Of a stretch of 64,000 nucleotides of DNA, positions 28,111 through 42,500 are shown in pieces. Position 1 is the first letter of the stretch, and each line of letters starts with the position of its first letter. This stretch comes from an uncultured Erysipelotrichaceae bacterium (GTDB lineage Bacteria > Bacillota_I > Bacilli_A > RF39 > UBA660): assembly GCA_902797995.1 (NCBI GenBank), contig CADBUX010000011.1, positions 1,013 to 65,012 on the forward strand, given 5' to 3'. Under the pieces are notes generated by a model. That model had not been told where the DNA came from and did no database searches. It saw only the letters and a program-made list of their open reading frames with translations. Made by a program: the position numbers and the translations under genes.

Positions 28111-29352
28111 TTACTCTATTACTTTTATTATTATATTCTTTTTAAAAGGTTTTATTATTGAAAATTTATATGCTTCATATATTTTATTATATGGGATTTC
28201 TTTGCCGTATAGTTTACAAATAACATCTCCTGTTTTTACATAATCTCCAACATTTTTAACAAGTACGACTCCTGCATCATAATCTATTTTATCATCTTTA
28301 TTTATTCTACCTGCTCCTAAAAGCATAGATGTTTCTCCAATTATTCTACTATTAATACTTTTTACATAACCACTTTTTAATGACTTTATTTCTATAGGTT
28401 CATCTTTTGAATCTTCTATTTTACCACCTTCAAATTCTATATAAGAGATAAGTTTATTATATGCATCATTATTTTTAAGTACACGTATAACATTTTCTCT
28501 TGCTTTATCTATTGTACAGTTTTTATTAAAAGCATACATAATTGAAGCCATTTCTACTGCCAATGTTCTTAAATCATTATTTTTATGATTTTTTAATATA
28601 TCAATTGCTTCTTCAATTTCAAGTCTATTACCTATATTACTTCCTAAAGGATTATCCATTCTTGTTAACATACATATTACTTTTCTATCATATTTATTAC
28701 CTATTTTTATCATTAAGTTAGCAAGTCTTTTAGCCTGTTTTTTATTTTCTATTAAAGCACCTTTACCAACTTTAATATCTATTAGTATTTTACCTGCTCC
28801 ACTTGCTATTTTTTTACTCATAATACTTGAAGCTATTAATGGAATTGATTTAGTGGTACCAGTTACATCTCTTAAAGCATATACCTTTTTATCAAGTGGA
28901 CATAGATTATCAGTTTGACAAGAAATAACCATATTAGTTTCTCCGATAGCATTGTAAAATTCTTCTTTTGTAAGAGATGTTTTAACACCTATACTATCTA
29001 GTTTATCTATAGTTCCTCCGGTATATTCTAAAGCTTTACCACTCATTTTAGAAATTCTAACTCCTAAACTAGCAAGTATTGGAAGAACAATTAATGTAGT
29101 CTTATCACCAACACCTCCCGTGGAATGTTTATCTACAAATGAAATATTAATTGGAAGGGTTTGACCACTTTTTATAAATATATCTGTAAGATTTATAGTT
29201 TCTTCATCAGTCAAATCATTCTTACAAATAAGTTTCAAAACCTTAGTCATTTCTTCATCATCTATTTTATTATTTAAATAACCTGTAAATATATTATCAA
29301 GTTCAATATATGACAGTTTTTCTTTTCTTTCTAGTTTTTCTATTTCTTTCAT
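28111..29352 (-). CDS. pdp: pyrimidine-nucleoside (thymidine) phosphorylase
   Basis: HSTGGVGDKTTL and the glycosyltransferase family 3 pattern. Confidence 0.85.
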   Translation of the reverse strand: MKEIEKLERKEKLSYIELDNIFTGYLNNKIDDEEMTKVLKLICKNDLTDEETINLTDIFIKSGQTLPINISFVDKHSTGGVGDKTTLIVLPILASLGVRISKMSGKALEYTGGTIDKLDSIGVKTSLTKEEFYNAIGETNMVISCQTDNLCPLDKKVYALRDVTGTTKSIPLIASSIMSKKIASGAGKILIDIKVGKGALIENKKQAKRLANLMIKIGNKYDRKVICMLTRMDNPLGSNIGNRLEIEEAIDILKNHKNNDLRTLAVEMASIMYAFNKNCTIDKARENVIRVLKNNDAYNKLISYIEFEGGKIEDSKDEPIEIKSLKSGYVKSINSRIIGETSMLLGAGRINKDDKIDYDAGVVLVKNVGDYVKTGDVICKLYGKEIPYNKIYEAYKFSIIKPFKKNIIIKVIE

Positions 29353-29428
29353 GACATCACCTACTATAGCTTTATTATATTATTTTTCACTATTTTAAGC
29401 AATATAAAAACCACTTTCAATAGTGGTT

Positions 29429-30982
29429 TTATCTTAAGAAATCTTTAAGTGCTCGACTTCTTGATGGATGTCTTAATTTTCTTAGTGCTTGAGCTTCAAT
29501 TTGTCTAATACGTTCACGAGTTACCCCATACTCTTTACCAATTACTTCTAAAGTTCTAGGATCTTTTCCATCTAGACCAAATCTAAGTATCATTACATTT
29601 CGTTCTCTTTCTGATAAACTCTCCATAGCGCTCATAAGGGCATTACGTAATTCGTGTTGTTCTACATTTTCTTCAGTTACATCGCTTTCATCCGGTATAA
29701 AATCTATTAAATAACTATCTTCATCTTCTCCAATGGTAGCATATAACGACACTATATCTTGTCCATACCTTATAATATCCTCAACTTTTTCTACACTAAC
29801 ATGTAATGCTTCTGCTAACTCTTCATTATTTGGATTTCTATTTAATTTTTGACGCAAATGACTTTTTTCTCTTTTTAATTTATAAATTGATTCTACCATA
29901 TGAACAGGCACCCTAATTGTACGATCATTATCTGCCTTAGAACGAGAAATTGATTGTCTTATCCACCATATAGCATATGTTGAAAATTTAAATCCTTTTG
30001 TTATGTCAAATCTTTCCACAGCTTTCATAAGCCCAAGGTTACCTTCTTGAATCAAATCAGAAACGGATAATACTTTTTCATGTGATGATGCATACTTAAT
30101 AGCAACAGACATTACTAATCCAAGATTAGCATTTATAATATGATAATTAATTTCTTTCTCTTTTTGTTGTAAAGAATCATATTTTTTTATTAAATCTCTA
30201 CATGATTCAGGAAGACTTTCTAAATTCTGTTCTCGTTCATTAATAAGATCATTACATATCATACGAGATACTTTTTCTTCTTCTTGTTGATATTGTTTAT
30301 ATAGTTTTTGAAGCTCACCTTTAATAAATGTATATTGTGAAACTGACCTATCATTTTCATTAGTAGTTAAATCATCAGAATTTTTTATTTCTTCTAGTCT
30401 ATTTTTTAGTTTCATCATTTCCTTAACTGCTTCTTTTTCAGAAATCTTGAAATCTTTAATTCTTTTTTTACATGTCTCAGGAATGTTATCTGGATTATTT
30501 TTATTCTCTTTTATTACTTGTTTCCAAACAATTTTTCTAATACGCTCCATTTCATCCTCAATAATTTTCTTATTGGTAAATAACTCAACTTCTTCTTCCT
30601 GAGTAAGTAATTCTGTTCTGTGAACTTCCTTAGAATATTGTTTTACAACATCTAAACCACGATTATACCCCTTAACTTTTTTTTCTTGTTTATCGCTTTC
30701 TTCATCCTCTACAAATTCTTCCTCATAATCTGTAGTTGTTAATATTATATTATTAGATTCAAGGTATTTTTCTATTGAATCCCTAACCTCACTATATTTT
30801 GATAATCTGTGAATTTCTTCCATACTAACTTCACTACGATTAGAAAAACGACTATCTAAAGCTTTCTTTAAATCCGATCTTTCAATTATATCACGTTTAA
30901 TAGAATCATCGATGTTATCGTTTTCTCTATATCCATTGTTTTTTAATTCTTTTTCTATTTGCTTTATTATTTTTTCTAACAT
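29429..30982 (-). CDS. sigA: primary sigma factor RpoD/SigA with long non-conserved insertion
   Basis: Region 2.4/3 IRQSISR...RTIRVPVHMVE and region 4.2 GVTRERIRQIEAQALRKLRHPSRS are diagnostic for group-1 sigma. 517 aa because of a charged insertion of about 150 aa between regions 1.2 and 2. Confidence 0.85.
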   Translation of the reverse strand: MLEKIIKQIEKELKNNGYRENDNIDDSIKRDIIERSDLKKALDSRFSNRSEVSMEEIHRLSKYSEVRDSIEKYLESNNIILTTTDYEEEFVEDEESDKQEKKVKGYNRGLDVVKQYSKEVHRTELLTQEEEVELFTNKKIIEDEMERIRKIVWKQVIKENKNNPDNIPETCKKRIKDFKISEKEAVKEMMKLKNRLEEIKNSDDLTTNENDRSVSQYTFIKGELQKLYKQYQQEEEKVSRMICNDLINEREQNLESLPESCRDLIKKYDSLQQKEKEINYHIINANLGLVMSVAIKYASSHEKVLSVSDLIQEGNLGLMKAVERFDITKGFKFSTYAIWWIRQSISRSKADNDRTIRVPVHMVESIYKLKREKSHLRQKLNRNPNNEELAEALHVSVEKVEDIIRYGQDIVSLYATIGEDEDSYLIDFIPDESDVTEENVEQHELRNALMSAMESLSERERNVMILRFGLDGKDPRTLEVIGKEYGVTRERIRQIEAQALRKLRHPSRSRALKDFLR

Positions 30983-30994
30983 ACAATCACCTTC

Positions 30995-32104
30995 TTAATA
31001 TAAGCCTTTCTTCTCGGCTAGTGTTTTTATTTTAACTTCTCCGCTTTTTTGAATCTGACGTATTCTCTCAGCTGACAAGTTTAATTCCTCTCCCACATCT
31101 TTTAATGTGGCAGGTTCATTATCATATAAACCATAACGCTTAATTAATACTATCCTTTCATTTTTAGTTATCGATTTATTCTCTAATAATTCTCTTATAT
31201 CTTCTTGCTCTTTTTTATCCATTACTTCTTTTTCACTATCATTAGATTCATCTAATATATAGTCCTTTAACTCGTTAGGTTTAGGATTATTATACATATT
31301 AATTGGAGTTTCAAGACTAATCGTAGTAGGAAGTGCAAGTATTTTTTCTAAAGCTTCCTTCTTTATATTAAGCAGTCTTGCGAATTCTTCTTTAGTTTTA
31401 TCATCATTCATGTATAAAAATGTACCATTTTCTTTATAATAGTCTATTTTTAATTTGTTTAGCTTGTGTAATAGTTCATGAACATGCTTTGGATATTTTA
31501 TAATTCTAGATTTTTCTGCTATCGCAATACTAATTTTTTGAATTATCCATTGTGTAGCATATGTTGAAAACTTATATCCTAATGTGACATCAAATTTATC
31601 AACAGCTACCATAAGACCAACATTTCCTTCTTGGATTAAATCTTGAAGAGATAATCCATTATTTTGATAAAGTGTTGCGTATTTTATTACTAATCTAAGA
31701 TTAGCATTTATAATTCTATCTTTAATTTTTTGATATTCATCAAAATCTTTTGCAGTTTTTAATCTAATAAATAGTTGTTTTTCTTCTTCAGGCGTTAATA
31801 AAGGAATTCTATTTATATCTTTAAAATACAATGCTAATGTATCTAAATCATCTTTTCCTATTCCTGTAACATAAGAATCACTATTAATTAATGTAATACC
31901 TTTTTCATATAAATATAATGTTATTATATTTTGAAGTTTTATATCTCTAGTAAGGTTTTTTAATTCACTTTTAGTGATACTTTTCTTGTTTTTAAATAAT
32001 GTATTTAACTCTTTTTTTATGCTGTCATTATTTAGGATATCATATGGTGTCATAGTAGGATCTTTCTGCAACTGAGAAATCATATTAATAACATTATAAT
32101 TCAT
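30995..32104 (-). CDS. second sigma-70 family factor (divergent, non-primary)
   Basis: Region 2 (DLIQEGNVGLMVAVDKFD, YKFSTYATQWI) and region 4 HTH (LKDVGEELNLSAERIRQI). Lacks the RpoD box. Immediately upstream of sigA. Confidence 0.7.
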   Translation of the reverse strand: MNYNVINMISQLQKDPTMTPYDILNNDSIKKELNTLFKNKKSITKSELKNLTRDIKLQNIITLYLYEKGITLINSDSYVTGIGKDDLDTLALYFKDINRIPLLTPEEEKQLFIRLKTAKDFDEYQKIKDRIINANLRLVIKYATLYQNNGLSLQDLIQEGNVGLMVAVDKFDVTLGYKFSTYATQWIIQKISIAIAEKSRIIKYPKHVHELLHKLNKLKIDYYKENGTFLYMNDDKTKEEFARLLNIKKEALEKILALPTTISLETPINMYNNPKPNELKDYILDESNDSEKEVMDKKEQEDIRELLENKSITKNERIVLIKRYGLYDNEPATLKDVGEELNLSAERIRQIQKSGEVKIKTLAEKKGLY

Positions 32105-32308
32105 GATGTCATACCCCCTCTTTTTAATAAGTAAGATTATAGCACTTTTTGTTTAAAATGTCAAGAAAAACCGTATTAATCCATATATGTGATTTATGAA
32201 TATCTTGTATATTTTTATTATTGTAATATTACATATGATTATATTCTTTCTGACACAAGAAAAAATACCCAAAATATGGATATCAAATTATATATATTAA
32301 TTTTAATT

Positions 32309-33028
32309 TTATCTATAAAAAACAGCTTTTTTGAATAGATAAATATCAAGTTTATTATATAAAAAATTAAATACTTTTTGAGAAATTAGTTTTTTACCTA
32401 TCAATGTAAGAACAAAACTAGAAACATAAACTATTATAACAATAATGAGACCTCTTAATTCTACTAAATGATTATTAATTAAACCATTTACACCACTTGA
32501 CACTAGTATATAAATTAAAAAGAAAGTAAGAAGTACAATAATAGGATATATATAATAAAAAGTAATCATAATAATATCACTAAGTAAGAAACTAATGAAC
32601 GCTAAACCAATTATAAACCATTTTAAAATAAAACAGAAAAAGCTTTCTATGGAAACTAATATCAAGGATACTATTTTTTTTACTGTTTTTATATTTTTAC
32701 TATTTAAGTATTCTCTTAAGTATTCCCATTTAGTAACTGTCTTGTTTTCGTATTCAGAATAGTTATAAGGGCTTTTAGATTCTCTTCTTGTACCTGAATA
32801 TTTTTCATAAGTATTAGTTTCTTTATGTTTTAAGAAATCATCATATTCTTTCCTTTTTATTTCATCTAATAAAATATCTTTAGCTTCATTTATTTTCATA
32901 GACATAGAAACAGCATCTTTATCTTTATTGATATCTGGATGCCATTTTTTCATTTGAGCTTTGTAAGCTTTTTTAATTTCTTCTTTTGTAGCATTATTAC
33001 TTATTCCTAAAAGATCATAATAGTTCAT
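32309..33028 (-). CDS. J-domain (DnaJ-like) membrane protein
   Basis: N-terminal J domain (YYDLLGIS..ATKEEIKKAYK...KWHPDIN) followed by four hydrophobic helices. Confidence 0.6.
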   Translation of the reverse strand: MNYYDLLGISNNATKEEIKKAYKAQMKKWHPDINKDKDAVSMSMKINEAKDILLDEIKRKEYDDFLKHKETNTYEKYSGTRRESKSPYNYSEYENKTVTKWEYLREYLNSKNIKTVKKIVSLILVSIESFFCFILKWFIIGLAFISFLLSDIIMITFYYIYPIIVLLTFFLIYILVSSGVNGLINNHLVELRGLIIVIIVYVSSFVLTLIGKKLISQKVFNFLYNKLDIYLFKKAVFYR

Positions 33029-33179
33029 ATAATCACCAACAAGTACATTTTAGCACAAAAAAAAGAACTATAAAAGCTCCTTATTTTTCTATGGAGCAAT
33101 AGTTGAGTAATTACACAACTTTTTTCCAAATTGAAATGATATATAAATCATCCATCTAAAAAAATTATATCATATTATT

Positions 33180-33374
33180 TCAATTTTTTAAATAAGCATT
33201 TTTATCATCGTCTGTAAAATAATTATCAAACCATCTATATTCAAATATACATTCTTCATTAATATCATTATCAATGTATTGGGAACCATCATACAAGGCA
33301 TATTGTAATAATTGATATAGTTTTTCTTTATCTTTCATATTCACGCTTACTATTTCATAATTCATATTAATCAC
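33180..33374 (-). CDS. hypothetical 64-aa protein (last gene of cargo operon)
   Basis: Short acidic ORF followed by hairpin plus T-run terminator at about 33085-33110. Confidence 0.3.
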   Translation of the reverse strand: MINMNYEIVSVNMKDKEKLYQLLQYALYDGSQYIDNDINEECIFEYRWFDNYFTDDDKNAYLKN

Positions 33375-33559
33375 CAGCCTATAAATATTATATCATAGAA
33401 AAAGATTAAGTTTTCACTTAATCTCTTAGAAATTAATTTTTGCTTCCTTGCTTGATAGCAGCTTGTACTGCGGAAATAATTGGAATTGCAGTAAATTTTT
33501 ATTTATTGTCTAAAATGATTTATTTAACAATTCTTATTTTATTGAATATTAGCATTGCA

Positions 33560-33874
33560 TTATATTTCTTCATATTCTTTAATTCTTGTGTTTACACCAT
33601 CTATTATTTTATACTCACGATGCTTATTTTTATTTATCTTATTTATTAATTCCTTTTCAAGATCTATGTTTAATATTTCCGATAGTCCAAGCAAATAAAT
33701 CATTGCATCAGCTATTTCTTCACCAACATCATCTTTTTTCTTTCTCCACGCTTCATACGCTTCAGCTACTTCTCCATAAGTTAAACAAAATTCTTTATTT
33801 ATATCTGTCACATTAAAGCCTTTATCTAGTTTATTTTGATATACATCTTTTTGTAATTTTTTTAAATCTATCAT
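33560..33874 (-). CDS. MazG-like nucleoside triphosphate pyrophosphohydrolase (small all-alpha type)
   Basis: EF.LTYGEVAEAYEAWRK and EEIADAMIYLLGLSEILNIDLE match the metal-binding E-x-x-E/D pattern of single-domain MazG/YpjD-like NTP-PPases. Confidence 0.7.
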   Translation of the reverse strand: MIDLKKLQKDVYQNKLDKGFNVTDINKEFCLTYGEVAEAYEAWRKKKDDVGEEIADAMIYLLGLSEILNIDLEKELINKINKNKHREYKIIDGVNTRIKEYEEI

Positions 33875-34461
33875 TATTTTTCCTCCAAAACTTTATTAAT
33901 TATCTTTCTTATTTCAAAAATTCTTTTTTCCATAAATTCAGGATGATCTTTAAACCATTTAATATTAAGTGGTGATGGATGAGGTAATACTATTGCTAGT
34001 TTTCCATTAATATAACTATCTTTAAATATTAAATCATTAAAATTTTCACTAGGAAAAAATACTTTTGCTGATTTTGCTCCAATAATAATATATAGTTCAT
34101 TATTTATATACTCTAATTCCTTTTTAATCCATGTTTCATAGCAAATCTTTGGTGGCATTCTATCATTTCCATTTTTATCTTTTCCAGGGTAGCAATGAGA
34201 AAGAGCAGCAATATAGAAATTATCAGGATTATAAAAAATTGCATCATCAATCATATACCATTCATATTTTAATTTTTTTCCACTTAAATCAGTAAATGGT
34301 TTTAATGTTTGATGGACTGTAGCAGAAGGTGCTTGACTAATTTGAACAATTTTGGAATTTATATTTCCTAGTATTATAGGATGTGGTCGAAAGCCAAATT
34401 TTTCTTTACAAATTTCACATTTTTTTAATTGTGATATTAGTTGATCAAATTCTTTTTGCAT
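33874..34461 (-). CDS. uracil-DNA glycosylase superfamily protein (family unassigned)
   Basis: C-terminal motif LPHPSPLN equals UDG motif B (HPSPL[SN]). An N-terminal Q-A-P-S segment lies in the motif A position. 195 aa. Confidence 0.5.
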   Translation of the reverse strand: MQKEFDQLISQLKKCEICKEKFGFRPHPIILGNINSKIVQISQAPSATVHQTLKPFTDLSGKKLKYEWYMIDDAIFYNPDNFYIAALSHCYPGKDKNGNDRMPPKICYETWIKKELEYINNELYIIIGAKSAKVFFPSENFNDLIFKDSYINGKLAIVLPHPSPLNIKWFKDHPEFMEKRIFEIRKIINKVLEEK

Positions 34462-35032
34462 TATTTTTTCTAAACTCCTCTAATTTTTGTAAAACCTCGT
34501 TAAAGATTTGTTCAATTGGCTTCATACCATCAATGTATATCAAATTATTCTCATTTAAAATGGATGAGTAAGCTTTTCTAACTTTGCCTAAATGTTCCAC
34601 TGATGATTTAATATTGAACTTTGTATCTATATTTCGATTCACAGATTCTTCTGGAGTAATATCAATAAAGAAGCCAATATCTGCCTTTGGAAATACTGAA
34701 TTGATATTTAAAACAAAATCTTTATCTACACCTTCTGCCATTCTATATGCAATAGCGGATGGTACATATCTATCAAATAGTAATATTTTATTATTTAAAT
34801 CATCACTGCTAATACTTTTCATTCTTATATATCTGTCAGCTGCAAATAAATAAGCTTTTAAAATTGAATCTAAAGTGCCTTCAATTGCCATTTTCTTTAG
34901 CTCTATACCAATGTTGGTTTCAAATTCCTTTGATACTTCAGCATCTAGTCCAATATTTATATAATAATCCTTTAACATTTGAACTAACGTTGTTTTACCA
35001 CAATTGTCTAATCCTTCAAAAATAACTATCAA
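34445..35032 (-). CDS. thymidylate kinase-like dNMP kinase (element-borne paralog), TTG start
   Basis: P-loop FEGLDNCGKTT and LFDRY...SAIAYR Tmk motif. The start is TTG (complement of caa at 35030-35032), preceded by RBS AGAGGTGA. Confidence 0.7.
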   Translation of the reverse strand: MIVIFEGLDNCGKTTLVQMLKDYYINIGLDAEVSKEFETNIGIELKKMAIEGTLDSILKAYLFAADRYIRMKSISSDDLNNKILLFDRYVPSAIAYRMAEGVDKDFVLNINSVFPKADIGFFIDITPEESVNRNIDTKFNIKSSVEHLGKVRKAYSSILNENNLIYIDGMKPIEQIFNEVLQKLEEFRKNNAKRI

Positions 35033-35053
35033 ATTATATCACCTCTTATTAGC

Positions 35054-35095
35054 ATTATATCATAAGAAAAGACTAAGAAATTATAATTCGTAGTC
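35054..35095 (-). promoter_or_regulatory. putative extended -10 promoter (TGaTATAAT) for the tmk-like/UDG-like/MazG-like operon
   Basis: Minus-strand TGaTATAAT about 20 nt upstream of the RBS, immediately after an upstream hairpin terminator. Confidence 0.3.
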
Positions 35096-35106
35096 TTTTT
35101 TTTAGC
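35066..35106. terminator. bidirectional hairpin terminator between the unknown-function cargo genes and the nucleotide-enzyme operon
   Basis: Hairpin gactaag..cgtagtc with a T8 run on the plus strand and a T-rich tail on the minus strand. Confidence 0.4.
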
Positions 35107-35237
35107 TTAATTATTTATTTTTTAAATTTGCTTGCCCCGCAGTAAAGATTGGAACAATAAAGAACCAATTCGCGGACTAAGATAACTATTTATGTTATTT
35201 TATAACAATAATTTTCTTTATTTAATTGTGCAATTTT

Positions 35238-36182
35238 TTAATTTTGTATTACTTTTTCTAAAACTCTTGGTTTAACAAATTCTAATTCCCATTGTTGAGG
35301 TCTTAATTGATGCATTTGTTTACAAAATTGGATTTCTTCCCATATTCTATCTGTAGTTTCTTTATCACCATAGAACTTTAATAATGCATCATAAGAATAC
35401 TCATACAATTCGTTCCTTTCAAACAAAGGCATTGGGTTTCCTTTATAATTTGCATGATCATTAGCAATACCCCATTCCCATTGTTCTAATGTTTCATCAT
35501 AAACTTCGTCATTAGTCCAAAAATCCATTATTAATTTTTGTTTTTCCTCTAATGACCAATTTGGATTTCTAAGTATCCAATATCTTATATCAAAATCTCC
35601 TGAGCCATGTGCTTGAGTATCACTTAATGAACTAAATAAACTAGCCATATACATATTACCAGTTTTAGCACCTACAGGATTAATCGAACCTCCAAATTCA
35701 GTATACACAGTTTGTTCATTTGTAATACCTTTTTCATCTAATTCTTTAGAATATTCATTCATAGCATTTTTGTATCTAGTAGTACCTATTTTATTCATTG
35801 CTTCATCAACTGCAAATGCTTTTTGATCTTCTGTTAATTTTAAATTAGGATTCCATAAAGTCATTAGTAAATATGAATAACCACCATTACTATAACCATC
35901 TAAAACAATTCTAGCAATTTGTCTATTAGAATAAATCAAGTCTACAAGTTTTTGATACACTTCATTATCAACATTATTAAAATCAACAAGCATATCCTCA
36001 CATATTGCTAAACCATTTACTAAATCTCTTTCTCCAAATTTATCTTTAGTTGGTTTGATTGCCCATTCTAATAATTCTTTATTATTTTTAATTGAATTCC
36101 AAATTTCTTCTGGATTTCCAACTTTTTTATCACAATCTCTTGCATAATATAGTTTATCATCTATTTTTCTAAAATCTTCCAT
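35238..36182 (-). CDS. hypothetical protein (314 aa, cargo gene D)
   Basis: Long ORF with coding-like composition and no motif I can recognise. W/Y-rich C-terminal half. Confidence 0.4.
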   Translation of the reverse strand: MEDFRKIDDKLYYARDCDKKVGNPEEIWNSIKNNKELLEWAIKPTKDKFGERDLVNGLAICEDMLVDFNNVDNEVYQKLVDLIYSNRQIARIVLDGYSNGGYSYLLMTLWNPNLKLTEDQKAFAVDEAMNKIGTTRYKNAMNEYSKELDEKGITNEQTVYTEFGGSINPVGAKTGNMYMASLFSSLSDTQAHGSGDFDIRYWILRNPNWSLEEKQKLIMDFWTNDEVYDETLEQWEWGIANDHANYKGNPMPLFERNELYEYSYDALLKFYGDKETTDRIWEEIQFCKQMHQLRPQQWELEFVKPRVLEKVIQN

Positions 36183-36271
36183 ACTAAACCTCCCCGAATA
36201 TATTTTTATTTTAACATAAAAAAAACTAGATTTCTCTAGTTTTCAATTATATTTTTATTTATTTCAATTTT

Positions 36272-36868
36272 TTATATAATTAACCTTTTTGCTTGTTCCT
36301 GATCAGTTCTTATTGCTTCTCCAACAAACTCAGCTTGTACTTTATAAAATAACTCTGGATCAGAAAAGAAACTTTTTCCTTCAGGTGGATAAATTATATT
36401 ATCAGCATTTTTAATTCTAAATAATTCTCTATTTTTTCCATTTTCTTTCTTATCAGAAGGCCCAAAAGAATAACCTGGTTGTTGGAGATTCCAATATGTA
36501 TCTTCATAATCGCTTATTCTTTTTCCTGTTATACAGTTTATTATTGGTTCATGAGAACGTAAATAACAATATATTGGATAATTATCATCTTTTAATAATT
36601 CTTCAGTAAATAAGTAATTACACATCTCATGTTTCAAAAAATCATATAATAAATTATCTATTTCTAAATAATTCATTATTTTTTCTTCTTTATACTCAAT
36701 GCATTCAGCAAATTCTCTAACTTTTTCATCTTTTAATAATTCATGGATTCTTTGTATATTCTCATTCATTTTTTTTATTATTTGATTTTGATCAGAAATG
36801 TATTGTTCTTGTAATTTTCTCCAAGAAGGATATTCTTCTTTAACTATTCTTATAAAGTCTTCAGTCAT
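36272..36868 (-). CDS. hypothetical protein (198 aa, cargo gene C)
   Basis: ORF with no recognizable domain. Confidence 0.4.
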   Translation of the reverse strand: MTEDFIRIVKEEYPSWRKLQEQYISDQNQIIKKMNENIQRIHELLKDEKVREFAECIEYKEEKIMNYLEIDNLLYDFLKHEMCNYLFTEELLKDDNYPIYCYLRSHEPIINCITGKRISDYEDTYWNLQQPGYSFGPSDKKENGKNRELFRIKNADNIIYPPEGKSFFSDPELFYKVQAEFVGEAIRTDQEQAKRLII

Positions 36869-36953
36869 ATTATCAGCCCTTTACTGGTGAATTATTATAA
36901 CATATTCTTTCAACTCTTTCAATAAAAATTCAAAAGAAACTAATTTTCATAAT

Positions 36954-37340
36954 CTAGTTTCTTTTATATAAATTGTAGTTCTTATCTTTTTCCTGTCTTC
37001 GTTCTTGCACTCTTTCTTCACTATATATACCAACAGTTTGAATACAAGCATACATAAATGATTCAATTCTTTCTTTATCTTCTTGATTAAACTCAGATAA
37101 TAATTGTTCTTTCTCTAAAGCTATTTCTTCATTTGACAATTCTTCTTCAATATCTATTTTACTTATAATTTTTAATATTAAAAGCATAGCTTTTGAACAA
37201 GCATCACAAAACTTTTCATTTGGATCATTTAAACACATATCAACATAATCCATATATACTTTCTCTTCATCACTTAAATTTTCATATTCTGAAATATATT
37301 TATAATTATAAAGTTTTAATATCATTATCATTTTATCCAT
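36954..37340 (-). CDS. hypothetical protein (128 aa, cargo gene B)
   Basis: Small acidic ORF with a Cys pair (CDAC). Confidence 0.35.
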   Translation of the reverse strand: MDKMIMILKLYNYKYISEYENLSDEEKVYMDYVDMCLNDPNEKFCDACSKAMLLILKIISKIDIEEELSNEEIALEKEQLLSEFNQEDKERIESFMYACIQTVGIYSEERVQERRQEKDKNYNLYKRN

Positions 37341-37428
37341 ACTTTTAAATCTCCCTAATCAGTTATACAACTAATCATATCAAAAACTTTATTGTTTAGC
37401 ATTTTATAATTCTTTTATTGCATTGTTC

Positions 37429-38229
37429 TCATTTTTTCTTGATTTTTTGTTTATTATTATTTTGGTGTTTTGGTTTAATTGTTTCTATCAAATCATTTGT
37501 TTCTATTTTATTTATATCAACACCATTCTCTTTAATAAAAGACATAAAAGACATAACAGCATTAGCTAACTCATCATCTTGTAAGTAAAATACAATAGGA
37601 TGATGAAATCCCAAAGTTTGCTTATTAGGTAGGTTCAATTCTTCAGTTACATATTCATCGTTTCCAAACAAAACTACCGAAGAACCATATCTATATATTT
37701 CTTCTATTTTTTTTCGCATCAGATATGAATTTTTTTCATTACTGAACTTAGCTAATGCCTCTTTTTCAGCTAATATAGTAACTTCTCCGGTGTATTCATC
37801 AACTGTACGATAACCATGTTTTTCACTACTATCATATGTTGGATATTTTATTGTTTTTATTTCATATTGAATTGATTCATCGCTTGCTAATTGTCTTAAA
37901 ATCCTAAAAACTTTTTCATACTGTTCTTCATCCATAGATGAATCCTTTATATTTCTTGAAGCGTTTTCATAGTGTCCTATTTTTGTAATAATACCTCTTA
38001 GTATTAATTCATTCATTTGTTTTAGTAATTCTAATCTTTTTACTAAATCTTTAGCAATTTCTTTTCGTCCTAAAATCTTTTGTTGATAATCATTTTCAAG
38101 CGATACAAATTCAGAATAAAGGTTATAAAAATCTTTAATATCCTCTTGAGTGATTTGATATTCCATAATTTTATTATAATCTCCTGGCTTAACATTAAGT
38201 AATATTTCTTTTAAATTTTCCGCAGTCAT
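37429..38229 (-). CDS. hypothetical protein (266 aa, cargo gene A)
   Basis: ORF with no recognizable domain. Follows the relaxase gene. Confidence 0.4.
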   Translation of the reverse strand: MTAENLKEILLNVKPGDYNKIMEYQITQEDIKDFYNLYSEFVSLENDYQQKILGRKEIAKDLVKRLELLKQMNELILRGIITKIGHYENASRNIKDSSMDEEQYEKVFRILRQLASDESIQYEIKTIKYPTYDSSEKHGYRTVDEYTGEVTILAEKEALAKFSNEKNSYLMRKKIEEIYRYGSSVVLFGNDEYVTEELNLPNKQTLGFHHPIVFYLQDDELANAVMSFMSFIKENGVDINKIETNDLIETIKPKHQNNNKQKIKKK

Positions 38230-38292
38230 GACAAACCTCCCTTTGACTAAATTATTATATTATATTTAAAGATTTTAATCAATGCTATACTA

Positions 38293-39660
38293 TTATATTT
38301 CATAATCATCTTTTTCTTTGTCTTTTATATCATCCCAGCCTGTAATTCTATCAAGTGTTTTTTCACTCATAATTTGATGATTATACATATCACTAATAAC
38401 TTCTGCATAAACATCTTCTTTATCTTTTCTATGAAACATTCTTTTTAAGAAGTTAACTAGTTTTTCAAATAAGTGTTTTAATTCTTGAAGTTCATATTTT
38501 AAATTAAAGTTGTCTTTTCTATATTCATCAATTTGTTTTTCTTGTATTTCTACTTTTTCACTTAAAGTATCTACTCTTAATTGTAATGCATCATTACTTT
38601 CTTTTAAGTTTTTAATTCTTCTAGAATCCTGTCTAGCTTGTTTAGTAATGATATTTAAGTTTGCCGATAATTCTTTAACATCTCTATATTCATCAGTTGT
38701 TTTATCAACTTTATCAATATAATCTTCCAGCTTATCCTTTTGTTCTTTAGAAATGATAAATAAATCATCTCTTAAAGGAACTTTTTTAAGTTTATTTATT
38801 TCTTCTTTTATATTATTAGAATTAGTTTTTAACTCTAATGAATTATTACTTATTGAATCTATTTCTTTTTGATGTTTTTCAATTAGTTCTTTTGTTTCTT
38901 GATAGTTAGTCATATCAGCTACATTGATATCTCTATTTCTACCTTTCATTTTTTGTTTTAAAGTAGCATCTAGATTATATTCTTTGTTGTATTCTTCGAT
39001 ACATAAAGTTCTCATTTTATCTTGTAATTGCATTAAAGAAGTTCTAGTAAATACATCGGTTTTACCAACTTGTTTACTCATACCAGTTTTACAATTATAT
39101 TTTATTGGAACACCTACAATATGCATGTGAGGACTTGTTTCATCATAATGAATAATAGCACTACATACTTTAAAGTTTGGCATTAACAATTCTAAATCAT
39201 CAACTTGTTTTGAATAAACATTAGTCATTTTATGTTTATAGTCCAAATCTTTTGTATCCCAAAACTTCTTATCTCCAAGTTCAATAATAATCTCACAAGC
39301 TAAATCACTTTTAGAATTATCACTTACTTTTTTGAAGTAGTCATCGATCTTTCTATCCTGTCTTGTTTGTTTATTATTGTATTCTAATCTTGCTTCTTCA
39401 AATTCAGTTTTATAAAAATCTTCTACATCTTTGTATAGGGAAGAAGTACCTTTTACAATTACAATTTGTTCTTGTTCGTTGTCATATTTTCTATAATTAT
39501 GCTTATCACATTTTGATAATGTTTTAGCATTTTGTATTCCGTTATTAGTCATTGAAGTTGTTCCACTAATATTATTTTTAGCAGAACTTCTAACACTATT
39601 TTTTCTATTTTTATTACTTCCCAAATGTAGAGAATATGGAAGCTCACTTATATTAATCAT
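38293..39660 (-). CDS. plasmid recombination/mobilization protein, MobV (Mob/Pre) relaxase
   Basis: Motif IIHYDETSPHMHIVGVP matches the HxDE...PHxH signature of MobM (pMV158) and Pre proteins. Long coiled-coil C-terminus as in MobM/TnpZ. Confidence 0.85.
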   Translation of the reverse strand: MINISELPYSLHLGSNKNRKNSVRSSAKNNISGTTSMTNNGIQNAKTLSKCDKHNYRKYDNEQEQIVIVKGTSSLYKDVEDFYKTEFEEARLEYNNKQTRQDRKIDDYFKKVSDNSKSDLACEIIIELGDKKFWDTKDLDYKHKMTNVYSKQVDDLELLMPNFKVCSAIIHYDETSPHMHIVGVPIKYNCKTGMSKQVGKTDVFTRTSLMQLQDKMRTLCIEEYNKEYNLDATLKQKMKGRNRDINVADMTNYQETKELIEKHQKEIDSISNNSLELKTNSNNIKEEINKLKKVPLRDDLFIISKEQKDKLEDYIDKVDKTTDEYRDVKELSANLNIITKQARQDSRRIKNLKESNDALQLRVDTLSEKVEIQEKQIDEYRKDNFNLKYELQELKHLFEKLVNFLKRMFHRKDKEDVYAEVISDMYNHQIMSEKTLDRITGWDDIKDKEKDDYEI

Positions 39661-39708
39661 CTCCTTTCTTATGGCTCAATTTTGGCTTGTCAAAATGTAT
39701 AACCCCCT

Positions 39709-39760
39709 AGATATCTTGTCATGCTAACAAGATATCAGTGGGCTAAGGAATATTCCTTAG
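39709..39760. promoter_or_regulatory. candidate oriT / RS_A-like site upstream of the mob gene
   Basis: Two adjacent palindromes: agatatcttgt-N7-acaagatatca (39709-39737) and a perfect 18-bp palindrome ctaaggaatattccttag (39743-39760). Confidence 0.3.
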
Positions 39761-39916
39761 AATCCTTTATTCAATACTTTGTAATGAAACTATGTACTAC
39801 ATACTTTCAAAACTTCGTATTGTATGGATGAAAATATTTTATCTTCATAAAACATTTTCTTTTGTAAAAATGCTATCGCCACTTTCATTACTTTGTAACA
39901 AAACGTGCCACGCATT

Positions 39917-41916
<2,000 letters not shown>

Positions 41917-42046
41917 AAAATAATTGATATTAAAAATATTTATATTTTTGTTTTTGTGTTTATATTTCATAGATGTACCTCCATTTCTAGAGCATACCTC
42001 TTTCATTGGTTATATATAATATCACTTTTGAAAATAATGTCAATAG

Positions 42047-42319
42047 TTATAGATTTTTAATAAACTCTTGTAAATCACTAATTTTAATATGTTTTTGTAA
42101 ATTTTCTACATAAACATCTCTACCATGATTAAAAGCTAGAAATGTTGTACCTTTGATGATTATTTTATTTGGCTCTATATAATTAATATTTGTTTTCTCA
42201 ACCTTACGAATAGAACCATTGATAAATGTTGGAGTAGTATTACAAAAATCACAAATAAACTGGATTCTTGTTTTAAGTTCCTCATCAATAGGTATTTCCT
42301 TTGTTATAACTTTTAACAT
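42047..42319 (-). CDS. hypothetical 90-aa protein between tRNA-Gly and the recombinase
   Basis: ORF with a Cys pair (CDFC) and no recognizable domain. Confidence 0.35.
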   Translation of the reverse strand: MLKVITKEIPIDEELKTRIQFICDFCNTTPTFINGSIRKVEKTNINYIEPNKIIIKGTTFLAFNHGRDVYVENLQKHIKISDLQEFIKNL

Positions 42320-42357
42320 AATTCACCATCCTTTCTTTGGACGGATGATTTATAAAC

Positions 42358-42384
42358 ACAAAAAAATCTATCTCTCGATAGATT
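42358..42384 (-). terminator. rho-independent terminator downstream of tRNA-Gly
   Basis: Hairpin atctatc-tctcg-gatagat, followed on the minus strand by a T7 run. Confidence 0.45.
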
Positions 42385-42425
42385 TATATATCAAACTCGG
42401 TAATCGTTCCGAGCAGATTCCTCAA

Positions 42426-42500
42426 TGGAGCGGACGAGGAGAATCGAACTCCCATCCTAGCCTTGGCAAGGCCATGTTCTAACCATTAAACCACATCCGC
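42426..42500 (-). tRNA. tRNA-Gly (anticodon GCC)
   Basis: Manual fold: acceptor GCGGATG/CGTCCGC, anticodon loop TTGCCAA, T-loop TTCGATT, encoded CCA. Confidence 0.85.

Follow-up and report, generated by a model that had tools for sequence, protein, structure and literature searches.

Integrative mobilizable elements (IMEs) of the Tn4451 type, which move by means of a serine recombinase, are characterized by very short repeats, a 2-bp crossover and low target specificity, and the Tn4451 serine integrase carries out both integration and excision without a directionality factor (PMC5704250). An element of this architecture was found in a 64,000-nucleotide stretch of DNA (hereafter the window) from an uncultured Erysipelotrichaceae bacterium (GenBank assembly GCA_902797995.1, contig CADBUX010000011.1, positions 1,013 to 65,012), where it occupies about 9.3 kb (window positions about 33092-42431) and carries, downstream of its relaxase gene, four consecutive genes for orphan proteins, here called A, B, C and D. 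From the comparisons described below, A-D are, very probably, selected accessory genes, inherited separately from one another, which occupy the cargo slot of a Tn4451-like IME present in at least two unrelated genomes, and which constitute neither the backbone or housekeeping machinery of that element nor a single module. In common with Tn4451 and Tn4453, the element is small, encodes one large serine recombinase (TnpX in those elements) and one MobV relaxase (TnpZ in those elements) in the same orientation, has an origin of transfer (oriT)-like inverted repeat upstream of mob, and combines very short flanking repeats with low site specificity. It differs from them in lacking TnpV, TnpW and TnpY homologues as well as catP (as judged with Pfam and NCBIfam), in the presence of a conserved small gene, orf90, upstream of the recombinase, in a cargo of four orphan proteins together with thymidylate-kinase-like (Tmk), UDG-superfamily and MazG-like proteins, and in its hosts, which are uncultured gut Bacilli and an organism of 50% G+C (GC) content. 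Models for both TnpV and TnpW are included in Pfam-A. Because no match to tnpV, tnpW or tnpY was obtained, the element is considered to share the Tn4451 architecture without being a close relative.

The boundaries of the element were established with the help of metagenome contigs, on which the same gene string was recovered by exact-protein look-ups followed by BLAST against the window (loci outside the window are cited by L number). Two element-bearing contigs, compared over the extents L002:1-13513 and L003:1-11310, are 97.7-99.9% identical to window positions 33094-42431 along most of this length, and beyond it no similarity is left; in the leftmost 0.4 kb, which surrounds orf90, the identity is 90-95%. 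In the window, the integration site is the 3' end of a tRNA-Gly(GCC) gene (42426-42500, minus strand; found by ARAGORN, Rfam tRNA 63.9 bits). Reading of the junctions placed the repeat GCTCCA at both ends: the left copy (42426-42431, the attL core) forms the tRNA 3' end including CCA and is where homology to L002 starts, and the right copy (33092-33097, the attR core) lies where homology to L002 and L003 ends, at 33094. GC content is 50% in the flanks of the L002 copy but 26% within the element, and the two target sites have only GCTC in common. In L002, the element interrupts an open reading frame (ORF), and joining of the flanks restores one uninterrupted frame. The same right junction was present in two independent assemblies (L002 and L003), with 99.9% identity over 3.8 kb. 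On the strength of the mapped ends, the repeats and the restored ORF, this is a genuine 9.3-kb IME with low target specificity. The setting on a mobilizable transposon that had been suggested for A-D could therefore be confirmed and narrowed down to an IME of the Tn4451 type, with both ends mapped and a second insertion site found. The near-identity of the copies, 99.8% for the element as a whole, points to its recent entry into no fewer than two unrelated genomes, one of 26% and one of 50% GC, and A-D are intact, at 99-100% identity, in the foreign 50%-GC host. The L002 copy adjoins a ribosomal-protein operon (S8, S14, L5, L24), has an extra 104-aa (amino-acid) ORF upstream of orf90, and has its mob gene called as two pieces (149 and 298 aa).

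Read from attL, the gene order is orf90, the large serine recombinase, the oriT-like site, the MobV relaxase, A, B, C, D, the Tmk-UDG-MazG genes and a last small gene, orf64, all on the minus strand. The recombinase, or integrase (39917-41845), is supported by Pfam matches to Resolvase (5.7e-33), Recombinase (5.8e-17) and Zn_ribbon_recom and by a PHROG integrase match (1e-101). The small basic protein encoded by orf90 (42047-42319, 90 aa) belongs to the backbone and has no Pfam or NCBIfam match; its gene stands beside a recombinase or Mob gene in L002, L012, L021/L023, L024 and L036, and it is possibly a regulator or directionality factor. The relaxase (38293-39660) matched Pfam Mob_Pre at 3.4e-13 and the NCBIfam MobV model at 5.2e-08, the latter at 33 bits against a cut-off of 100 bits, and tblastn searches with Mob found matches in 367 plasmids, 337 of which are typed as mobilizable. 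No type IV secretion system or coupling-protein domain was found in the 11 ORFs of the element.

In plasmid pMV158, the coding strand carries the MobM site AAGtaTAGTGTG upstream of mobM, with a G/T nick beside it (PMC5863519). The candidate oriT of the element (39697-39736, minus strand) consists of a perfect 10-bp inverted repeat, with arms at 39736-39727 and 39719-39710, followed on the mob-coding strand by TAGGGGG/TTATAC; the element has a single copy of this oriT-like motif, which L002, L012 and L013 carry without change. The pMV158 site continues with TTATAC. Both systems have a Mob_Pre-family relaxase, and their layout is the same, the candidate nick region of the element being situated upstream of mob, on the strand that encodes it, and just 3' of an inverted repeat. 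The Mob protein of the element is, however, 21-41% identical to plasmid Mob proteins, over part of its length, and the comparison sets an integrated element, with a nick site assigned only by its resemblance, against a rolling-circle plasmid. The circular junction of the excised element is predicted to contain CAACTATTGCTCCATTGAGGAATC.

The ORF listing showed A-D to be four consecutive minus-strand ORFs, co-directional with the genes for the MobV relaxase and the large serine recombinase, as stated in the original prediction. Gene A (37429-38229) encodes 266 aa, with a long helical hairpin in the N-terminal part, a C-terminal alpha/beta domain and a basic tail; gene B (36954-37340) encodes 128 aa, with an isoelectric point of 4.6; gene C (36272-36868) encodes 198 aa; and gene D (35238-36182) encodes 314 aa and is the founding example of a large orphan family of acidic, Trp-rich, mostly alpha-helical proteins with one beta hairpin. 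A ribosome-binding site precedes each gene. Homologues were found elsewhere for all four, with no fewer than 529 for D, 25 for A, nine for C and, for B, five related loci, and full-length homologues reach down to 40-60% identity. Pairwise Nei-Gojobori ratios of non-synonymous to synonymous substitution (dN/dS) ranged from 0.18 to 0.5 for D and from 0.2 to 0.3 for C; A gave about 0.3 (0.29-0.30 where the comparison was informative), and B gave 0.25-0.5 in three comparisons, with one outlier of 1.19 against L105. Values for the reference genes of the element were similar for Mob (0.08-0.47) and tighter for the recombinase (0.04-0.21). Since homologues occur elsewhere and dN/dS is about 0.2-0.5, A-D are judged to be real genes, and the ratios point to purifying selection rather than chance reading frames. 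All four proteins are hydrophilic and have no transmembrane or signal features. Among the 61 predicted proteins of the window, B ranks first, D second and C fifth in acidity, although the net charge of B, C and D is moderate, at -5 to -9 per 100 residues.

That the four proteins are of unrecognized function was borne out by searches of Pfam, NCBIfam, PHROGs and PADLOC with the single proteins, none of which gave a family match. ArdA, Ocr, ArdB/KlcA and other anti-restriction families gave no Pfam or PHROG match to A-D at E <=0.1, the Pfam immunity families none, and the transposon, replication, helix-turn-helix (HTH) and relaxosome families of Pfam and NCBIfam none. Of the defence components in PADLOC-DB 2.0 none matched A-D, and 83 diverse D relatives, scanned individually, gave only scattered single matches at E >=0.002 and no consistent Pfam, PADLOC or PHROG family. 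Effector domains (nuclease, NADase, pore-former, protease) could not be recognized in A-D. Searches of the PDB sequences with profiles of all four families were empty or insignificant. AlphaFold2 models built from the family alignments were confident for D (predicted local distance difference test score, pLDDT, 89.8; predicted TM-score, pTM, 0.85) and A (pLDDT 85.3, pTM 0.69), and Foldseek found no fold neighbor for the D model in the PDB or BFVD, nor for the A model in the PDB, the best TM-score being about 0.2. D was not found in the plasmid, GenBank phage or IMG/VR viral-contig collections searched, and the region as a whole has no near DNA match in the plasmid and phage collections. From these comparisons, A-D appear to belong to no described protein family.

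Elements built on the same backbone of orf90, recombinase and Mob carry other genes in the slot occupied here by A-D, which supports the proposal that A-D are cargo rather than backbone; the one finding that had been named as contrary to it, homology to housekeeping genes of the TnpV, TnpW or TnpY type, did not emerge from Pfam or NCBIfam. The suggestion that genes in this position are typically the selectable or adaptive payload may apply to A-D as well, although the searches pointed to no function for them. In L036 (9688-17903), orf90, a serine recombinase (63% identical) and Mob (55% identical) are accompanied by an erm-type RrnaAD methyltransferase (rRNA adenine dimethylase), a GntR protein, an ABC transporter, a KilA-N protein (PADLOC PDC-S22) and then D in inverted orientation. 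Given the erm-type gene, the same backbone moves a probable macrolide-resistance gene. In L038, Mob is convergent with D, and in L021/L045 a decayed Mob gene is followed by genes for an ABC1 kinase and a DUF3419 protein and then by D. None of these same-backbone elements (L036, L038, L021/L045) has A-C.

A-D had also been treated as one module, which the comparisons did not bear out. The full set was seen only in the copies of this element, and A, C and D each occur on their own in other contexts, D having no conserved neighbor in 69 species. Examination of gene-neighborhood conservation around D likewise revealed no recurrent partner. In the DNA retrieved, orf90, Mob or a serine recombinase accompanies D at only about 10 of 70 loci; an A-like gene was present at one locus, and B, C, Tmk, UDG and MazG were present at none. 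Clustering of the ORFs within 6 kb of D yielded no neighbor family present in more than five loci, and a Pfam census of 148 non-redundant neighbors, which covered the first half of the neighbors, yielded no family in more than four. The neighbors include genes for TGT, exonuclease VII, ribosomal protein L13 and TrmD. Synteny around D is absent even among copies that are 60-70% identical, so that D is accessory rather than core. A serine recombinase or MobV gene stands beside D in the window and in L034, L036, L038, L045, L059 and L106. Taken on these distributions, A-D appear to be separately inherited and not one operon-like module.

Two of the D-bearing islands are of interest for their other contents. 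The serine-recombinase island at L034:1903-11834 holds, besides D, genes for GNAT, radical SAM/SPASM, SLOG cluster 4 and M20 peptidase proteins, and two genes upstream of D it encodes a stand-alone protein with the helical domain of 5-hmdU DNA kinases (PF18723, 7.6e-106); the island may represent a DNA-modification or nucleotide-signaling system. Homology of D itself to PF18723 was rejected, as an hhalign comparison between the D alignment and the L034 protein yielded a probability of 0.5%. A link between D and thymidine-hypermodification genes (the Tmk-UDG-MazG genes and the L034 set) was also discarded, because D is not PF18723-like and these genes do not recur near D. At L106:2801-8945, the gene for a serine recombinase of 535 aa comes first, then one for an AAA_21 ATPase of 651 aa whose C-terminus is Toprim-like (PADLOC RT-Toprim_I-C region, 3e-20), then one for a protein of 412 aa, and finally D, which is 96% identical to its counterpart in the window.

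The transcription signals of the region also speak for more than two units. The spacing of A-D, described as tight, proved to be roughly so, with gaps of 63 bp (Mob-A), 88 bp (A-B), 85 bp (B-C) and 89 bp (C-D) on the minus strand, and the gaps contain sigma-70-like promoter matches and terminator-like hairpins. A promoter-like site, TTGATT-17-TATAAT, which is a consensus match only, lies in the Mob-A spacer (38254-38282, minus), and another, TTGAAA-17-TATAAT, with an upstream TG and 11 of 12 matches, precedes C (36894-36922, minus). An AT-rich terminator-like hairpin overlaps the stop codon of B (36932-36964, minus); after C there is an intrinsic-terminator-like hairpin, AACTAGAgaaaTCTAGTT, with a T run (36218-36241, minus), a pattern that occurs once in the window. 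The terminator and promoter reported between D and the nucleotide-enzyme genes could be located in the 205-bp D-Tmk spacer as a terminator-like hairpin with a T-rich tail (about 35063-35100, minus), followed by an extended -10 sequence, TGATATAAT (35054-35062, minus), ahead of the Tmk-UDG-MazG genes. This hairpin-plus-TGATATAAT layout is conserved 3' of D in L034 and L106, where the hairpin is stronger. The two transcriptional modules of the original prediction are not upheld, however: with promoter-like sites before A and C and hairpins after B, C and D, there are probably several transcription units rather than two. An ACTAG...CTAGT linker hairpin was considered as a cassette boundary and dismissed, as it occurs only once in the window. 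In an Rfam scan of the element, no RNA family other than tRNA was found.

D is by far the most widespread of the four. Its relatives form 269 clusters at 50% identity (exhaustive profile search), and it is present in 69 GTDB species, nearly all labeled as uncultured Bacilli, 'Tenericutes' or Erysipelotrichaceae, with a few labeled otherwise; the metagenome-assembled genomes that bear it come from rumen, rabbit, Hadza and other guts. The richness of D in Trp and Tyr that had been remarked on was confirmed (10 W and 18 Y; Trp 3.2% against a window median of 0.3%). The family has a conserved motif, HGxGxFDIRYxILxNxNW. In a broad alignment of 83 relatives, hydrophobic or aromatic residues occupy most of the near-invariant positions, and N111, K121, D198 and N206 are the only polar ones, a pattern of residue conservation that favors a scaffold or binding protein over an enzyme. 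A Cys2His2 metal site (C61, H192, C287, H291) was considered as a family feature and rejected, the residues not being kept in the wider alignment. A 54-residue insert (136-189) is absent from many relatives, and a few genomes have D in pieces (L059, L089, L093, L098). Over the gene and some 50-100 bp of flank, DNA identity is 87-97% in several otherwise unrelated contexts, from which it follows that D moves as a recombination patch of about 1.1 kb.

Rare architectures of D include a tandem double D (P0232), D with a WDGH domain, PF25311 (P0162), and NlpC/P60 with D (P0094); the proteins P0249 and P0269, of 600-660 aa, have D in the middle and a common C-terminal region without assigned identity. 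None of these fusions was informative as to function, and nothing relevant on the WDGH domain was found in the literature. Some 110 nucleotides 3' of D (window 35131-35237) are conserved with the gene in L031, L033, L034 and L106, and the 3' untranslated region holds a relatively GC-rich hairpin, CCGCG...AATTGG...CCAAT...GCGGGG (35175-35133), with an RNA fold z-score of -2.0 and no Rfam match.

Gene A lies directly 3' of Mob in the window and in L102; in L024 it directly follows orf99 and the recombinase, with no Mob, and in L108 and L110 it occurs in plain chromosomal surroundings with neither Mob nor recombinase. A weak T-fold-like Foldseek match of its C-terminal domain (probability 0.89, TM 0.32, about 110 columns) was discounted, as the QueD/PTPS metal ligands are missing from the family. 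A distant A-like gene (27% identity) is convergent to a D gene at L043:5608-8791, where neither Mob nor a recombinase is near; nowhere else outside the element are A-like and D genes neighbors. The rearranged variant at L102:1-4113 has Mob, A and a fusion of about the first 26 codons of D with the 3' portion of Tmk, then UDG and MazG, about 860 bp without a match, the 3' end of A, and B; it is the product of a true deletion or rearrangement, or else a chimera of the assembly.

In the B family, C36, C48, C99 and the stretch MYACIQTxGIYS are invariant. The PGYSFGP segment noted earlier in C is indeed present and is the most conserved part of its family, in which a G-x-SFGPSD motif (G132 and S134-F-G-P-S-D139) is invariant across eight sequences. 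C has 204 aa in every metagenomic copy, as against 198 aa in the window, where a 32-bp deletion at the 3' end of the gene (36251-36279) has removed the conserved basic C-terminal tail, KYGRR, and changed ...LILQKYRKR to ...LII; at first this had looked like a tandem duplication at 36251-36279. C also stands alone in L025, where its neighbors are ppdK and a gene for a P-type ATPase.

The leading regions of plasmids are enriched in anti-defence genes (PMC11541004; Samuel et al. 2024). Like the anti-defence islands found there (ArdA, anti-CRISPR, SSB, PsiB), A-D make up a run of small acidic accessory genes with promoter-like sites of their own, on DNA predicted to enter the recipient first, and their content varies between related elements. 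They differ in having no homology to any known anti-defence protein (Pfam, PHROGs), in being sense on the putative transferred strand, which would not allow expression from single-stranded DNA promoters, and in the occurrence of D mostly away from mobile-element markers. Arrays of orphan immunity genes are also known on mobile elements, an example being the recombinase-associated interbacterial defence clusters of gut Bacteroidales. With these A-D have in common that unrelated, small, soluble and fast-evolving proteins are encoded beside a recombinase in gut bacteria, each gene with its own distribution, whereas no Pfam immunity match and no toxin genes nearby were found, and D, with 314 aa and at least 60% identity in many species, exceeds typical immunity proteins in both size and conservation.

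The explanation of the locus preferred here combines carriage as IME cargo with a role in genetic conflict and is given a probability of roughly 0.4. Its functional part is put forward tentatively: each of the A-D proteins may be a stand-alone, soluble, cytoplasmic and non-enzymatic binding or inhibitor protein, serving either anti-defence and establishment or, as an orphan immunity protein, the neutralization of toxins. This is suggested by the acidity, the lack of a catalytic signature, the promoter-like sites of their own, the turnover between elements, the early-entry position and the company that D keeps, as D recurs by serine recombinases or MobV with defence-like (L106) or DNA-modification (L034) genes. 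On such a model, a helper conjugative element would supply the mating pore and MobV would nick the oriT-like site on the coding strand, whereupon the strand would enter the recipient with mob and then A-D first, by analogy with pMV158. After synthesis of the complementary strand, A-D would be expressed from their own promoters, the acidic B, C and D would bind their targets, and the serine recombinase would integrate the element with low site specificity. It is doubtful, though conceivable, that D, perhaps with B and C, represents the founder of new stand-alone anti-defence or immunity families that enable establishment in distant gut hosts, the scattered copies of D being remnants of past invasions.

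Several observations weigh against a role in conflict. In the families searched, A-D showed no homology to known anti-defence, defence or immunity proteins, and D was absent from the viral-contig, phage and plasmid collections searched, an uncommon situation for an anti-defence gene of broad use. B, C and D are moderately acidic and fall well short of classic DNA mimics. If the transferred strand is the coding strand, A-D could not be transcribed from incoming single-stranded DNA, unlike F-type leading genes, and the nick site itself was inferred from resemblance. H192, C287 and H291 are invariant among the closer relatives of D, which makes an enzymatic or metal site possible. About 60 of the 70 D loci have no recombinase, Mob or orf90 within the DNA retrieved, A is also found in ordinary chromosomal surroundings (L108, L110), and several C copies lie away from such markers; the predominance of D loci without mobile markers and the chromosomal A copies mean that these may be lineage-specific host genes and not tools of the element.

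This last possibility is the main rival to the preferred explanation. A-D would then be lineage-specific accessory genes of uncultured gut Bacilli with ordinary roles, picked up by the element through recombination, and D might be an enzyme or a structural protein. Such hitch-hiking is a real though uncertain prospect: it is in keeping with the D loci, and the several A and C loci, that have no mobile-element marker nearby, with the housekeeping genes among the neighbors of D, with the small recombination patch in which D is exchanged between contexts, and with the residues H192, C287 and H291 retained by the closer relatives. The putative metal ligands are, however, not conserved across the wider D family, the missing synteny around D even at 60-70% identity marks it as accessory, and D stands repeatedly beside serine recombinases or MobV (in the window and six other loci). 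Furthermore, all four genes have been kept intact in the foreign 50%-GC host.

Defence and housekeeping roles are less likely. If A-D, alone or with Tmk-UDG-MazG, formed an anti-phage or anti-plasmid system of benefit to the host, this would accord with the common carriage of defence genes by mobile elements, with weak PADLOC matches of the Tmk-like protein (PDC-M51B 3.8e-07, VakA 2.4e-05) and with the ATPase/Toprim-like, SLOG and KilA-N/PDC-S22 proteins of other D islands. Such a payload is nevertheless improbable, as PADLOC found nothing for A-D and nothing consistent for the 83 D relatives, no effector domain was recognizable, A-D never occur together outside this element, and Tmk, UDG and MazG were near D in 0 of 70 loci. 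Still less probable is the involvement of one or more of A-D in excision control, circle replication, the relaxosome or regulation, in the manner of TnpV, TnpW or TnpY. The location of A directly after Mob (window, L102) or after the recombinase (L024), its basic C-terminal tail and its long helical hairpin would suit such a function, but the transposon, replication, HTH and relaxosome families gave no match, relatives with the same backbone do without A-C (L036, L038, L021/L045), A, C and D also occur where no recombinase or Mob is near, and the Tn4451 serine integrase needs no directionality factor (PMC5704250). That the four are non-functional, as decaying or spurious frames in AT-rich DNA, might be read from the deletion that alters the C-terminus of C in the window, from the fragmented copies of D or from the single B ratio of 1.19. 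This has been largely refuted by the selection and structure results, namely dN/dS of about 0.2-0.5 over many comparisons and the confident AlphaFold2 models of A and D, alongside the full-length homologues at 40-60% identity and the ribosome-binding site of each gene.

The architecture of serine recombinase and MobV is that of the Tn4451 class, and mobile elements are full of unknown genes. The element is compact and apparently active and has passed between gut bacteria of very different kinds, and its cargo slot holds, in this case, four protein families without known relatives, of which D is common in uncultured Bacilli of herbivore and human guts. The features that stand out are the abundance of D, its confident fold without a neighbor in the PDB or BFVD, and the jump between 26%-GC and 50%-GC genomes. 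Should A-D turn out to act in anti-defence or immunity, the repertoire of such factors would gain new families, and the host range of the element would be easier to explain; should they be ordinary lineage-specific genes, the finding is that of a well-delimited new IME with orphan cargo.

The remaining genes of the element lie between D and attR. A second cargo block, located entirely inside the element boundaries (33560-35032, minus strand), consists of the thymidylate-kinase-like gene (34445-35032; Pfam 1.9e-28), the UDG-superfamily gene (33874-34461; Pfam 7.3e-20) and the MazG-like gene (33560-33874; Pfam 7.4e-06). The last small acidic ORF, orf64 (33180-33374, minus strand; 64 aa), is conserved in L002, L003 and L033 and has no Pfam match. 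Just outside the right end, at 28111-33028, are genes for a DnaJ-domain protein with a hydrophobic C-terminal half, for two adjacent sigma-70-family paralogues (369 and 517 aa) and for a thymidine/pyrimidine-nucleoside phosphorylase, which the boundary mapping assigns to the host chromosome and not to the element.

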